Part shown: piece after piece, positions 28,620 to 57,408 of the stretch
Position numbering within the stretch: position 1 is the stretch's first letter
Layout: every line of letters starts with the position of its first letter
Assembly: GCA_044226015.1 (NCBI GenBank)
Contig: JBGAHS010000006.1
Location: 256,001 to 320,000, forward strand
Source: Candidatus Obscuribacteraceae bacterium
GTDB lineage: Bacteria > Cyanobacteriota > Vampirovibrionia > Obscuribacterales > Obscuribacteraceae
Direction of reading: 5' to 3'
Length of the DNA: 64,000 nucleotides
Made by a program: the position numbers and the translations under genes
The notes under the pieces: generated by a model
The model's database searches: none
The model's input: only the letters and a program-made list of their open reading frames with translations
Told to the model about the DNA's origin: nothing

Positions 28620-29840
28620 CTAACCGGAGAGTGCCTCACTTACTCTGGCAGCTCCCGAAAAGACGTCGCTCACTGAGGTTGAATCATCGAGCATCAGATC
28701 AACACGTTCCAAAATCTTCCCAAAAACTTCGCGTAAATTCCTCTGATTCTGTCCTGCAATTTGTGCCCACATCTCGGGCTGGCTCTTCATCAAGCGACTA
28801 AGCCCCATCAAGGCTCCGCCAGAAAGGCATAACAAGTCCCGATCACCTTGTTCAATCATTTCCTGCTCAATCAATTCTCCAAGCGCACTTGCAAAAAGTT
28901 GAATTGAATGACTGGTAAGTGCGACGGTGCGATCGTGCGCGGCAGCACTGGTAATGAATACTCTTAGATCAAGCTTGCCAAACCAGCTTTTCAATCTTGC
29001 AATTGAAATTTCAGATGACTTGCTTGTTGGAACCAGACAAATCGTCTTGCCGGCAACCGTAACTTCGTCAGAATTTTCAAATCCACGTTTTTCGGTTCCA
29101 AAGAATGGATGCGCGCCAATGAATTCAGCTCCGTTGAGCTCAAGATTCTCGGCTAGATTACAAATCTCAGTTTTTGTTGAACAGAGATCAATAACTAGTT
29201 GACCTGGGCTCAAGTGAGGTGCAAGCTGCTTCAACATACTAATACTCACATCCGGAGGGCATGCAAGCACTATGAGAGATGAATTAGCAATCGAGTGTTC
29301 TGTGATTTCGGCGGCACACTCATCAAATATTTTGCTTTCAATCAATCGCGAAAGAGTTTCTTTTTGATCAATAGCCGATATCGAAGTTCCAGGAAGAATA
29401 GACTTAACCTGGCGAGCAAAAGCCCCGCCAATCAGCCCTGTTCCGACAACACAAATACTAGGAAACAATCGTTCAGATCGCGTCTTGTTTTCCTCGCATG
29501 CATTTGCTAGCTGTTGGAAATCAGCACTCTCTTTCATGATCGATTTGAAAATCCTAAGAACAAATTCCTTGCTGCTTCTTTGCGAAAGAGCACGGGAAAC
29601 ATTTTCAAGCACTATTTGTTCTCTAGTTCCATCATGAACCTGCCGCCCCATCGCGGCTTTGGTCCTTCCTATCTCAAGGCTGAGATCAAAGCGTTTTGCA
29701 AGAAGCGCAATAATCTGTTCATCGAGCGTATCGATGCCCTCACGGAGAGCATCAATTCTATTCTGGTCAATATTTGCTGCAGAATTGCAGCCGTCTTCAA
29801 TTAATTGCCCCTGGCGGGGCCAGTTCTTCGACAAAGACAT
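28620..29840 (-). CDS. tyrA: Chorismate mutase (AroQ) - prephenate dehydrogenase fusion
   Basis: LREGIDTLDEQIIALLAKR...REQ CM domain; GTGLIGG, DLCSTK, HPFFG, HD..VA..SH PDH motifs. Confidence 0.9.
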   Translation of the reverse strand: MSLSKNWPRQGQLIEDGCNSAANIDQNRIDALREGIDTLDEQIIALLAKRFDLSLEIGRTKAAMGRQVHDGTREQIVLENVSRALSQRSSKEFVLRIFKSIMKESADFQQLANACEENKTRSERLFPSICVVGTGLIGGAFARQVKSILPGTSISAIDQKETLSRLIESKIFDECAAEITEHSIANSSLIVLACPPDVSISMLKQLAPHLSPGQLVIDLCSTKTEICNLAENLELNGAEFIGAHPFFGTEKRGFENSDEVTVAGKTICLVPTSKSSEISIARLKSWFGKLDLRVFITSAAAHDRTVALTSHSIQLFASALGELIEQEMIEQGDRDLLCLSGGALMGLSRLMKSQPEMWAQIAGQNQRNLREVFGKILERVDLMLDDSTSVSDVFSGAARVSEALSG

Positions 29841-29857: not shown

Positions 29858-30751
29858 TTATACGCAGGCTGCGCGATGATTGCGATCGATTCCAGGTGCG
29901 AAGCTTGTCTCGCGAACAACATGCACAGGAGCTTGCACTCTGCGTCCAACTGCGGCTGCGACCGGACGTAGGCTTTCAATGAGTTGAACCATTGCTTCAA
30001 GTGAAAGAGCTTGACGTGCATCAGATACTGATTTCTCTGGCTCGGGATGGCATTCGATCATCAGTCCATCAGCACCACACGCGACAGCGGCTCTGGAGAG
30101 GTCTGCAATCAATTCATGTTTTCCAGCGGCGTGGCTGGGGTCAACAATCACTGGAAGATGCGTTAGCTGCTTCAAAGCTACAACAGCGCCGAGGTCAAGA
30201 ACATTTCTAGTGAACGTATCGAAGCTTCTGATTCCGCGCTCACACAGAATAACCTGATGATTTCCGTGTGCCATAATGTATTCAGCAGCCATGATGAATT
30301 CTTCAATCGTCGCTGAAAGCCCACGCTTCAGTACAACAGGCTTGTTGCATTTGCCGACAGCCTTAAGGAGATCGAAATTCTGCATATTGCGGCTGCCTAT
30401 CTGCAGGACATCAGAATGATTGCAAACGTCTTCAATTTGTGACTCTGTCATCACTTCGGTAATTGTGGGAATCGCGAAGCGCTCAGTAATATCGGCGAGA
30501 ATCTTCAGTCCATCAAGACCCATTCCCTGGAAGGAGTATGGGGAAGTGCGAGGTTTGAAAGCGCCACCACGAATTGCTTGAACCGGACCATGCTTTAGAG
30601 TCTGGGCGACGAGGTCCATTTGTTCTTTGCTTTCGATTGTGCAAGGACCACCAACGATGAAGATATCAGTGCCTCCCACTTCGAAATTGCCGACCTTAAC
30701 GGTGCTCTTGACCATGCCTTCGTTCTTCAAAACTAATTTAGCGTCTTTCAT
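29858..30751 (-). CDS. aroF: DAHP synthase, type I-beta, with no N-terminal regulatory domain
   Basis: GPCTIES, GGAFKPRTSPY, QIGSRNMQN, LKRG, CERGI, DPSH; GGAGG SD. Confidence 0.95.
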   Translation of the reverse strand: MKDAKLVLKNEGMVKSTVKVGNFEVGGTDIFIVGGPCTIESKEQMDLVAQTLKHGPVQAIRGGAFKPRTSPYSFQGMGLDGLKILADITERFAIPTITEVMTESQIEDVCNHSDVLQIGSRNMQNFDLLKAVGKCNKPVVLKRGLSATIEEFIMAAEYIMAHGNHQVILCERGIRSFDTFTRNVLDLGAVVALKQLTHLPVIVDPSHAAGKHELIADLSRAAVACGADGLMIECHPEPEKSVSDARQALSLEAMVQLIESLRPVAAAVGRRVQAPVHVVRETSFAPGIDRNHRAACV

Positions 30752-30769: not shown

Positions 30770-30814
30770 AAAAGAAAAATCCCGAACCCTTCCATTTCTT
30801 GGGGGAGTTCGGGA
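30770..30814 (-). terminator. Attenuator terminator 2 (proximal to aroF)
   Basis: UCCCGAACUCCCCC-AAGAAAU-GGAAGGGUUCGGGA followed by UUUUUCUUUU. Confidence 0.88.
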
Positions 30815-30844
30815 CTTTGTAGTGGTGATTTGGACACGACTATG

Positions 30845-30898
30845 TCACCCGGGGCTCCCCCTGGTTGCGTAAACATAGCTGTAATACCAATTTCTCAC
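30845..30898 (-). CDS. Leader peptide 2 (MRNWYYSYVYATRGSPG)
   Basis: GTG start, AAAGG upstream, 1 Trp and 4 Tyr codons; its 3' end GGGGGAG..CGGG is complementary to the 5' arm of terminator 2. Confidence 0.85.
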   Translation of the reverse strand: MRNWYYSYVYATRGSPG

Positions 30899-30927
30899 TT
30901 TGCTCGACCTTTGATGAATTTGCCCTC

Positions 30928-30960
30928 AAAACGAAAAGACCGCAGAAACTATCTGCGGTC
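30928..30960 (-). terminator. Attenuator terminator 1
   Basis: Perfect 9-bp stem GACCGCAGA-UAGUU-UCUGCGGUC followed by UUUUCGUUUU. Confidence 0.9.
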
Positions 30961-30995
30961 CACCTTTGCTAATCTCGCTCGCGTCACTACGCGGC

Positions 30996-31046
30996 TCAGC
31001 TAAGGTGAACCTCCATTTGCCAGTAATAGTAGTACGCGCGTTTCAA
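30996..31046 (-). CDS. Leader peptide 1 (MKRAYYYYWQMEVHLS)
   Basis: TTG start 7 nt after AGGAG; four consecutive Tyr codons then Trp; its 3' end pairs with the segment overlapping terminator 1. Confidence 0.88.
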   Translation of the reverse strand: MKRAYYYYWQMEVHLS

Positions 31047-31071
31047 GGGAAAACTCCTAACAACTCCAGTC

Positions 31072-31100
31072 ATCCTATACCTAACTCCCTATGCCGTCAA
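31072..31100 (-). promoter_or_regulatory. Sigma70-type promoter of the leader-aroF-tyrA transcript
   Basis: TTGACG - 17 nt - TAGGAT, just upstream of the leader 1 SD. Confidence 0.7.
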
Positions 31101-31502
31101 CCCATTTGTTAACCTTACCTCAGTAATTGGGCTTTATGAGTGGTGGAACCACCATAAAGATAGGCATTCGCAGACTTCACATCAAATCAGTGCCGAGAAT
31201 CTTAGTTCTATATATTATTGAAGGGGTAGTCCTCGCCTTCAGTATCGCGCTCTCAGCCGATTGACTGATGCGCATAGGAGATTCGCGCGATCTCTGTGCT
31301 CCACTGGTGATCGAATACTGCACCAAATCAGCAGTACCAAAGAAATTTGAAAAAAAATGGAATTTTGCTGGAACATAGACTGGCACCGGGCGTCTCAGGT
31401 TACATGTTCTCCTAAAGTTCAATTATTTATTGTGTGTGGAACAGCAGGCTAACGCTTTGGTCCTGTTGCATATTTTTGGCAGCCTACGTCGGAGTTGACT
31501 CA

Positions 31503-32048
31503 ATGAAAAAACTATTTGGTGGCGCACTAGCTCTTTTATCAGCATTCGTAATGATCTCATCTGCAACACCAGCTCAAGCACAAGGGCTAGTGAACACTTT
31601 AAGAGGAATCGCAAGCGATCCATCTGTAGACAACTACTTGCGCACAAAATTCTCTGGCTATTCTAATTTAGCGCCTATCAATGGATACGTTGGCTACAAC
31701 AACGGATACTATCCTCCAGTAAATGGCTACAACAACGGTGGTCTTCTGAATTCCTTAGGCAATGGACTGCTCGGAAATAACTATTACAACAATGGCAATG
31801 TTCCATACAACGGTTATGGATACAACGGAAATTTGGACCCAACTCTGTATCCGACTTCGTACGGTAACACACTGAATGGCGCAGCGAATTGGAATGCTGG
31901 AAACAATTGGTCAGGTTCAAACGGAAATGGAAGGCACCACAAGCGCCACCATCATAGTTGCGGTGGACCAAACAACGGATTCTACTCCATGCAAAATGGA
32001 GCAGCACTTGGAGGCATTGGTTACAACCCATACACCCTGGGTCGCTAA
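31503..32048 (+). CDS. Secreted Asn/Gly/Tyr-rich protein
   Basis: MKK signal peptide ending AQA; N/G/Y low-complexity body with a His cluster. Confidence 0.8.
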   Translation: MKKLFGGALALLSAFVMISSATPAQAQGLVNTLRGIASDPSVDNYLRTKFSGYSNLAPINGYVGYNNGYYPPVNGYNNGGLLNSLGNGLLGNNYYNNGNVPYNGYGYNGNLDPTLYPTSYGNTLNGAANWNAGNNWSGSNGNGRHHKRHHHSCGGPNNGFYSMQNGAALGGIGYNPYTLGR

Positions 32049-32064
32049 TTGATGAGAGTGTGAA

Positions 32065-33009
32065 ATGAGAAGCAGACCGAACAAAGCAATTCTTCTTTCA
32101 GTGCTAAGCAGCCTTGCGTGCGCTCTACCAGCGCCTGCCCAGGGACTGATGGACACCTTAAAAGACATAGTCACTAACCCCGCGTTTTCGAATTACATTA
32201 GAGCGAAAGTCGCACCGGTAAGTTCAAACGGCTTCTACTCACAAAACTATCAAGCCCCCACCTTCACAGCTTCAACTCCCGCTGCTTTCGCTGGAACGCC
32301 ACCAGCGATGGCGGCCCCGGCACCAGCGAACACAACAGCATCTAGCGTAGGAATGACTCTAACAAAGCAACTGGCCCCCGCCGAACTGCTTCAGCTCAGT
32401 CAATACGACATCGATGTGCTTGTTGATGAATCTGGTTCGATGTCTACCCGCGATTGCCCTGATCCACTGATGACTGGCTCAAGCGTATCTCGATGGGACT
32501 GGTGCCGGGCTCAATCTTCTATTTTGACCCAGCAAACTGCGGGCGTAAGCGGAATTTCGCTAGTACCATTTTCAGACAAATTTACCCGTTATGAAAATGT
32601 ATCTCCGCAAGCAATCAACTCATTGTTTGCTTCTAACACTCCAGAAGGTTCAACGAATCTAGCTCTGGCTTTGAAACAAGAATTTGATCGCTATTTTCAG
32701 AGTCATAGTCAAGGTTTGAATCGACGACCATTGATGATTTCAGTTATATCTGATGGCGTTCCTGATAACAAAAGCGAAGTATATAATCTGATTCGCAATG
32801 CATCGATGCAAGTCGGACAAAACGAAATTTCAATCGCGTTCTTTTTGATTGGACAAGATCAAAAGGGAACAGAATTCGTTCGAGACTTACAGCGCAAGTT
32901 GCAGAAAGATGGAGTAAACACTATTTCAATTACGGAGCATTCCTTCGCCGAAGTAAATCAGGTCGGGCTGGCCAGAAGTCTAGTTTATTCGATGACCACG
33001 CATTCATAG
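32065..33009 (+). CDS. Secreted VWA-domain protein
   Basis: Signal peptide; MIDAS DESGSM, GST, ISDGVP. Confidence 0.85.
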   Translation: MRSRPNKAILLSVLSSLACALPAPAQGLMDTLKDIVTNPAFSNYIRAKVAPVSSNGFYSQNYQAPTFTASTPAAFAGTPPAMAAPAPANTTASSVGMTLTKQLAPAELLQLSQYDIDVLVDESGSMSTRDCPDPLMTGSSVSRWDWCRAQSSILTQQTAGVSGISLVPFSDKFTRYENVSPQAINSLFASNTPEGSTNLALALKQEFDRYFQSHSQGLNRRPLMISVISDGVPDNKSEVYNLIRNASMQVGQNEISIAFFLIGQDQKGTEFVRDLQRKLQKDGVNTISITEHSFAEVNQVGLARSLVYSMTTHS

Positions 33010-56679: not shown

Positions 56680-57408
56680 GGCGCCTTCCAGTGTTGTCTC
56701 AGATGGCATCCGACCGGACTGCGGTCACTGACTTTATCCACACACTTCTTGGGCTAGCTGCAGAATTCAGAACTGGGGAAGTCAGTAATTTAAAGAAATC
56801 TCGTTTTTTGAACATGTAAGGGTAGCCACGAGCAAAAGCTATCTATTAGACATACATTAACTCCCTCTTGAATATCTTTAAGCGGTACAGGTTATAGCTT
56901 TTCACTGATTTCGGAGAAGAATCAGCAATGAAAACAGGTTCAAGTGCCTGACATTTTTGATTTAAGAAAAGCGTGTGTCAAATGCTCAATTCTGTTCCTA
57001 ACAATTAATGCAAGATGAGCTTATTCTGGGGGACTTCACAAGCCTGATTCTCGCTGATAACATAGTATGCATATTCGGTGAGCGATTGAAGAAGCAATCA
57101 CTTCGAGCCGAGGGGCGATGTAGAAACAGCAGGAATGCGCATTCCGGGAACATCAGCAGCAGAGCCCGCTTTACGTGACGGATTGGCTGAAGCGTAGAGA
57201 AATATTGAGCCTCCAGCAAGAGGCAGCCAAGCAATAGCTAAGACACCATCGCGATTCAGTTCGGATGGTGTTTTTGTTTGTCCTCACTTTTTCCCCCCAC
57301 GGACAGACTGCGGCTAGAGAAAAAAGCAGCAATTGCTCGACATCTGATGCGGATCTCAACAGTTCGGTGAATTGCAACTACTTCCAACTGCCACTCGAGC
57401 CGTTTATC

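Follow-up and report, generated by a model that had tools for sequence, protein, structure and literature searches.

We found that the aroF-tyrA operon of this Candidatus Obscuribacteraceae bacterium is very probably governed by two ribosome-mediated transcription attenuators in series, tuned to tyrosine in this copy of the genes. The stretch of DNA analysed (the window, 64,000 nucleotides, whose positions are used below) has on its minus strand one promoter, followed by two different modules, each consisting of a leader ORF and a terminator, and then by aroF and tyrA. Each module likely senses charged tRNA-Tyr through the translating ribosome. With tyrosine in short supply, ribosomes would stall in both leaders and RNA polymerase would pass both terminators; with tyrosine plentiful, transcription would end at terminator 1 or terminator 2.

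The promoter is of the sigma-70 type (31072..31100, minus strand) and is made of TTGACG at 31100-31095, a 17-nt spacer and TAGGAT at 31077-31072; transcription would start near 31066. A ribosome binding site recognized by its sequence, AGGAG (31054..31058, minus strand), precedes leader ORF 1 (30996..31046, minus strand), which has 16 codons, starts with TTG at 31046, has a stop codon ending at 30996 and codes for the peptide MKRAYYYYWQMEVHLS. Its frame, start position and aromatic run are conserved, and its control codons are Tyr5-Tyr8 together with Trp9. The end of leader 1 is also the 5' strand of antiterminator 1 (31002..31011, minus strand), as seen from pairing and covariation. It pairs with bases that run into terminator 1: the 3' strand of antiterminator 1 (30957..30966, minus strand) shares 5 nt with the base of that terminator (30928..30961, minus strand), whose stem at 30961-30937 has a folding energy of -17.4 kcal/mol in the window and whose U-tract extends to 30928.

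The second module starts with leader ORF 2 (30845..30898, minus strand), a conserved ORF of 17 codons with GTG at 30898, a stop codon ending at 30845 and the peptide MRNWYYSYVYATRGSPG. The control codons are Trp4, Tyr5, Tyr6, Tyr8 and Tyr10. Thus, both leaders have non-ATG starts (TTG and GTG), and the ribosome binding site of leader 2 is weak. A protector hairpin (1:2) is predicted at 30832..30889 of the minus strand, where the control codons (30889-30866) pair with 30851-30832. The end of leader 2 makes the 5' strand of antiterminator 2 (30848..30861, minus strand; partner 30814-30802) and pairs with the entire 5' arm of terminator 2. This terminator (30770..30817, minus strand) has a stem at about 30817-30777 with an energy of -21.8 kcal/mol in the window and a U-tract extending to 30770; a simple terminator scan detects terminator 1 and misses terminator 2 due to its long loop. 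Downstream, aroF (29858..30751, minus strand; ATG at 30751, ribosome binding site GGAGG at 30760-30756) codes for a class I-beta DAHP synthase of 297 aa, and 17 nt after it comes tyrA (28620..29840, minus strand), a chorismate mutase-prephenate dehydrogenase fusion. The positions that an earlier, sequence-only reading had assigned to the promoter, both leaders and both terminators on the minus strand were all borne out.

Elsewhere in the window, divergent genes at 31434-33009 of the plus strand code for a Gly/Asn/Tyr-rich protein of 204 aa and a protein of 314 aa, with no Pfam match; at loci of the same genus the gene in this position matches a VWA domain. A poplar-1 RNA (RF03041) was found at 57102-57241 of the plus strand with a score of 137 bits.

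Could such an arrangement appear by chance? We defined an aromatic mini-ORF as one of 9-40 codons with at least 5 aromatic codons in 7. Among 20,000 random 330-nt stretches of the same genome, 95 had at least one such ORF and none had two. Genome-wide (8.19 Mb), an aromatic mini-ORF followed by a terminator was observed in six cases, and these include both leaders of the window as well as leader 1 of an aroF paralog. The folding of the leader region in the window was stronger than that of its shuffled versions, with z = -5.1. Searches against Rfam, including the Trp, Phe, His, Leu and Thr leaders, T-boxes and riboswitches, gave no match at gathering score in the leader; at E up to 10 the only match was a chance snoRNA hit outside it. 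RNA models of the modules, searched across this genome, found no copies besides the two aroF loci. The similarity between the two modules of the window is also not significant (197 of 1000 shuffles scored equally high), in agreement with the original claim that they are unrelated and do not stem from a recent duplication; we therefore rejected a recent copying of one window module from the other. The module 2 model does give weak cross-matches on module 1, and the two may have an ancient common origin.

The alternative pairings in module 1 were analysed in an alignment of 60 rows (61 loci minus one truncated). For antiterminator 1, 97% of the cells were paired and 8 of the 11 pairs showed two-sided change, a result reached by none of 500 shuffles and far above the slid controls. 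While 33 of the 60 rows come from a pattern that contains both antiterminator arms, the 27 rows found by protein search show the same pair types. For terminator 1, 96.5% of the cells were paired, with two-sided change at 6 of 10 pairs. In all these counts, as well as in those for module 2, kinship inflates the covariation, the related loci not being independent.

For module 2, the antiterminator duplex was assessed in 51 distinct loci, with 8 loci without module 2 left out. The mean energy of a locus's own duplex was -17.8 kcal/mol, compared to -14.6 +/- 0.36 kcal/mol for permuted partners (0 of 5000 permutations reached it). In an alignment of 42 of the 54 rows, from which 12 divergent or near-duplicate rows had been dropped, antiterminator 2 had 25 two-sided cells compared to 13.7 in shuffles, and terminator 2 showed two-sided change at 8 of 10 pairs. 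By an ungapped count, 81% of antiterminator 2 was paired, and the number of two-sided pairs was reached by 148 of 500 shuffles, partly because the clade of the window pairs with a bulge. Terminator 2 passed the hairpin and U-tract test in 39 of the 51 distinct loci; three of the failures look like miscalls, while the others, among them the locus of this genome's Phe paralog, have no clear U-tract. The protector hairpin of module 2 has an energy of -13.8 kcal/mol in the window and -9.8 to -17.4 kcal/mol in the window's clade. Across 45 loci, the mean for own partners (-8.8 kcal/mol) was better than that for permuted partners (-7.4 +/- 0.31 kcal/mol) in 5000 of 5000 permutations, and the hairpin is weak in many loci outside the window's clade.

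To relate these structures to translation, we used a model in which a ribosome shields the RNA as far as 10 nt beyond the A-site codon, with the RNA folded up to the 3' arm of the terminator. In the window, antiterminator 1 is predicted to be complete with the A site at codons 5-8 and to lose its outer pairs at Trp9. Antiterminator 2 is predicted to hold at codons 2-8, to be weaker at codon 10 and to be gone at the stop codon. Across loci, stalling at the first aromatic codons is predicted to allow antiterminator 1 in 56 of 58 loci and antiterminator 2 in 43 of 45 (excluding duplicates and 7 divergent rows), compared to 0 of 58 and 0 of 45 with the ribosome at the stop codon, an outcome that is partly a consequence of the assumed footprint. 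In the folding of the window at equilibrium, both terminators win whatever the position of the ribosome. Because the terminators are the more stable structures from the moment the 3' arm has been made, the switch would have to be kinetic.

Without a ribosome, folding alone lets antiterminator 1 form in 56 of 58 loci; thus, no protector is predicted for module 1. In module 2 without a ribosome, the antiterminator still beats the protector at equilibrium in 38 of 45 loci. We propose that a ribosome held at the Tyr codons would let the antiterminator form before the 3' arm of the terminator is made, and that a ribosome at the stop codon would block the antiterminator so that the terminator folds; both steps are predicted by folding. 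Module 1 would be a three-segment switch, predicted to be leaky when untranslated, and module 2 a switch with a protector hairpin; module 2 would therefore likely cut the leak of module 1. The earlier proposal of two independent starvation checkpoints keeps its two modules and loses their equivalence, given the protector hairpin in module 2 and none predicted in module 1. Passing two modules could give a multiplied, sharper response.

We observed this arrangement well beyond a single genome. A protein search over 41 genomes and 7 paralog regions gave 27 short-form aroF loci and 10 long-type loci. A terminator of the module 1 type was present upstream in all 27 short-form loci, and a second aromatic leader in 25 of them, including a locus with module 1 twice (L018), one with no second hairpin (L014) and one with a different, Trp-rich module (L036). 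At the long-type loci the module was absent in 10 of 10. The module 1 pattern, searched in GTDB genomes, gave 52 matches, 43 of them at most 800 nt upstream of aroF. A second aromatic leader accompanied 42 of these 43, even though the pattern had not required one; 11 pattern-found loci duplicate those of the protein-search set. The matches fell mainly in Obscuribacterales/Melainabacteria and in oxygenic cyanobacteria, among them Stenomitos, Leptolyngbya, Oculatella and Lyngbya isolates; some of the matched MAGs are labelled as other phyla, and these labels are probably wrong. Seven matches (L038, L056, L057, L060, L077, L084 and L086) were discarded as chance occurrences in other genes, without an aromatic leader. 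One locus (L045) has module 1 without aroF, and another (L061) is cut off by the end of its contig.

A covariance model of module 1 matched 61 of 83 genomes of the family and 26 of 151 sampled genomes of the phylum, with no match in 57 genomes of the small-genome family f6. This model added 25 further loci from the phylum, 22 of which had module 2 at more than 40 bits; among these further loci, L118 is single, and L105 and L127 look broken. Besides L118, single modules were observed at L015, L016, L073 and one locus in L143. Two modules are thus not obligatory. In five cyanobacterial genomes, aroF stands alone, without tyrA. The L018 locus (G008:C6), where module 1 occurs twice in series before aroF-aroQ with no module 2, is by its sequence a tandem rebuilt by duplication.

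The control codons vary in a way that follows the downstream genes. In the window's genus, the leaders of five aroF-tyrA copies contain 33 Tyr, 10 Trp and 7 Phe codons, while those of five paralogs that have chorismate mutase or P-II downstream contain 44 Phe, 4 Tyr and 0 Trp codons. The paralog in this genome (contig C10, 286102-284940, minus strand; L034) has two Phe-rich leaders, with chorismate mutase and P-II downstream, and its second hairpin has no U-tract. In quick trees, the Tyr set and the Phe set of the window's genus each form a clade. In another genus, g35, one copy has 37 Tyr and 2 Phe codons and the other 43 Phe and 11 Trp codons; of the five Tyr copies, two have a full tyrA after them and three have chorismate mutase alone. 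In the tree, the two Tyr-rich clades may represent one event or two. The proposed course is that, after gene duplication, the control codons would have been retuned, to Tyr in the aroF-tyrA copy and to Phe in the paralog.

Mixed leaders also occur. They were found at the aroF-tyrA loci L007, L009, L011 and L147, and sixteen named cyanobacterial loci mix Tyr, Phe and Trp codons, which fits the role of the enzyme as the first in the common pathway. Extra short aroF copies at L035 (G012:C1), L036 (G009:C31) and L145 have diverged leaders containing Trp codons and are possibly a Trp-tuned third type. For the window leaders, on the other hand, sensing of Trp is doubtful, as each has only one Trp codon and a stall at Trp9 is predicted to cover outer pairs of the antiterminator.

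Of the three DAHP synthase copies in the genome, only the one on contig C3, which has no leader, matches the ferredoxin-like regulatory domain PF18152. The product of the window's aroF has no such N-terminal domain. Given a DAHP synthase without its usual feedback domain, attenuation likely takes over the feedback control.

With respect to the setting in which such control would operate, Rho was not found in the genome (92% complete). Among 193 crudely called terminators only 19 were situated at most 12 nt from a stop codon. Short distances of this kind serve as a proxy for uncoupled transcription in the published account (PMC7858274). Since few terminators are close to stop codons, coupling of transcription and translation is plausible. 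A LeuA_dimer domain was not found in the genome.

The proposal of two serial attenuators has to be weighed against other explanations. That one module alone regulates, with the other one weak, decaying or constitutive and hence no joint control, appears unlikely to us. It would agree with the existence of single-module loci, with the missing U-tract of terminator 2 in several relatives and with the weak ribosome binding site of leader 2. However, both modules have been kept, with covarying stems, from Obscuribacterales to oxygenic cyanobacteria, and in the paralogs the two leaders have changed their codons in concert, to Tyr or to Phe. The doubling of module 1 at L018, where module 2 is absent, points in the same direction, and terminator 2 of the window is strong and U-rich. 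The nascent peptides could also be the sensors themselves, acting through conserved C-termini and not through tRNA shortage. Nascent-peptide arrest is the mode of action of TnaC and SecM, with RAGP as the SecM arrest motif, and the C-terminal residues of the leaders are well conserved (EVHL in one, RGSPG in the other, with RAGPG in two loci). Yet, the same nucleotides are read in another frame or lie past the stop codon in L019, L035, L121, L139 and L141 for module 1 and in L013, L017, L021 and L054 for module 2. Moreover, 59 of 60 rows have T at the third position of the Val codon, and this base changes only together with its pairing partner. Because the motif is read in other frames and the synonymous site is fixed by pairing, the constraint would be on the RNA and not on the peptide; we rejected sensing at the peptide level as highly improbable.

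An equally slim chance is given to readings in which leader and operon are disconnected, with module 1 making a separate small transcript and an aroF promoter located between the modules, or in which an RNA-binding protein reads the leader and the ORFs are untranslated. The non-ATG start codons could be taken in their favor. As for separate transcripts, 53 of 58 loci have the promoter pattern ahead of leader 1, compared to 0 of 58 with it in the spacers between the modules; the internal promoter that the sequence-only reading had set down as evidence against itself was sought and is absent in all 58 loci. As for a binding protein, ATG, GTG and TTG starts interchange in the same frame, the synonymous positions of the Tyr and Phe codons are variable, and no Rfam family matches. 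The comparison of aroF upstream regions proposed with the original reading has been run and showed conserved leaders and covarying stems. Conservation, covariation and promoter position together strongly support its central claim of two ribosome-dependent attenuators on one transcript.

Related leaders were observed elsewhere. Upstream of trpE in this genome (contig C7, 767287-767126, minus strand; L090) there is a single Trp-rich leader with a terminator whose stem resembles terminator 1. Upstream of the argJ operon (contig C1, 405558-405389, minus strand; L154), an Arg-rich leader, an antiterminator and a terminator are found. In a comparison of L148-L159, the argJ terminator and its competing strand were seen in 10 of 11 loci of the family, with an Arg-rich ORF in 7 of these; the elements were absent in L153 and in 4 loci of other families. 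This leader is a candidate arginine attenuator, judging from these comparisons. L143 (G066:C2) has module 1 as a single copy in two places 7.5 kb apart: one copy precedes aroF, and the other, whose leader has Trp-Trp, precedes trpE, here split in two frames, and trpG.

In two genomes of one genus, among 107 genomes, module 1 and its promoter stand directly before a tRNA array (L139, G051:C4, 229-986, plus strand; L141, G052:C4, 2853-2117, minus strand). The array at L139 codes for tRNAs for Phe, Gln, Gln, Glu, His and Glu. In a different reading frame, the leader gives MFLIQEQQFHTRFA or MFFQEQQFHMRFA, which abounds in the amino acids served by the array's tRNAs (Gln, Glu, Phe and His). A search of metagenome contigs for this tRNA-array leader did not find it. 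At L142 (G022:C20, about 2860-2520, minus strand), a Tyr-only tandem resembling that of the window precedes a cluster of PvcA/DIT1, TauD and FAD monooxygenase genes, with no aroF. The enzymes of this cluster would consume tyrosine, which leaves an induction on tyrosine shortage unexplained; the arrangement is possibly a rearrangement.

A broader reading, which we offer tentatively as possible rather than probable, would join several of these points. The two modules would make a mixed-logic AND gate, where module 1 would open on a stall or with no ribosome and module 2 only on a loaded ribosome stalled at the control codons. The pair would replace the lost feedback domain, and module 1 would be a portable cassette whose codons are rewritten per target: to Tyr or Phe in front of the aroF paralogs, to Trp in front of trpE, and to Gln, Glu, Phe and His where it precedes an array of exactly those tRNA genes.

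Among known systems, the classical trp-type attenuator has a four-segment layout. The classical leader attenuators of enterobacteria are trpL, pheL and hisL (PMC11802643, PMC3641672). As these are described there, the present modules share with them a control-codon leader, an antiterminator and an intrinsic terminator, and module 2 also a protector hairpin; in contrast, the enterobacterial leaders are single modules, while here there are two, with Tyr as the main control codon, no protector predicted in module 1 and no Rfam match. The aroR-aroF leader of Corynebacterium glutamicum is a single Phe-Tyr-Phe leader that responds to Phe and not to Tyr (PMC11802643, on Neshat et al. 2014). It is similar in placing an aromatic-codon leader before a DAHP synthase gene and in using ribosome stalling; it differs, in a comparison by description and not by sequence, from the two modules and the Tyr codons of the window. 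For Shewanella, aroF is listed with a proposed Tyr-tRNA attenuator, credited to a 1980 paper on E. coli (PMC2659441).

A tandem of leader ORFs was already known. The sequence-only reading knew of no described tandem leader-peptide attenuator; in Salmonella mgtCBR, however, the attenuators mgtM and mgtP stand in tandem, in what was called a singular example (Lee and Groisman 2012, PMC3641672). There, mgtM senses ATP and mgtP proline tRNA, and the two effects are independent and additive (PMC3641672). In both systems each leader has two short ORFs, each of which controls which of the alternative RNA structures forms and whether elongation proceeds into the operon. In its published description, mgtCBR has two different signals, no intrinsic terminators and a virulence/Mg2+ operon, whereas the aroF modules share their amino-acid codons, both end in U-tailed hairpins and precede a biosynthetic operon. 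A two-leader system of translational control is known for ermA, and comparative surveys of attenuators were reportedly made by Vitreschak in 2004 and by the Lyubetsky group. Tandem riboswitches (Bacillus TPP-TPP, SAM-AdoCbl) have been credited with an output that is more digital or combinatorial (PMC2258182). These are likewise two complete switches in series, but they bind metabolites directly, as the source presents them, while here the predicted sensor is the translating ribosome. In the literature covered, largely outside subscription journals, we found no biosynthetic operon preceded by a pair of serial leader attenuators for amino acids and no such attenuation in cyanobacteria, and mgtCBR was the only tandem leader-ORF case identified.

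Tunable amino-acid sensors of this kind could serve in strains producing aromatic compounds. In E. coli, isoenzyme-specific control is exerted by allostery and repressors. That a single genome has both Tyr and Phe paralogs suggests that changing a small number of leader codons can rebuild control of this kind. If the AND gate is true, the pair of modules would tell a shortage of a specific aminoacyl-tRNA from a general failure of translation. The presence of the tandem in cultured cyanobacteria makes the gain from a second checkpoint, be it a lower leak, a wider range or a multiplied or additive response, directly testable. For the phylum, the finding would extend classical ribosome-mediated attenuation, in a doubled form and with Tyr as the main control codon, to Cyanobacteriota.
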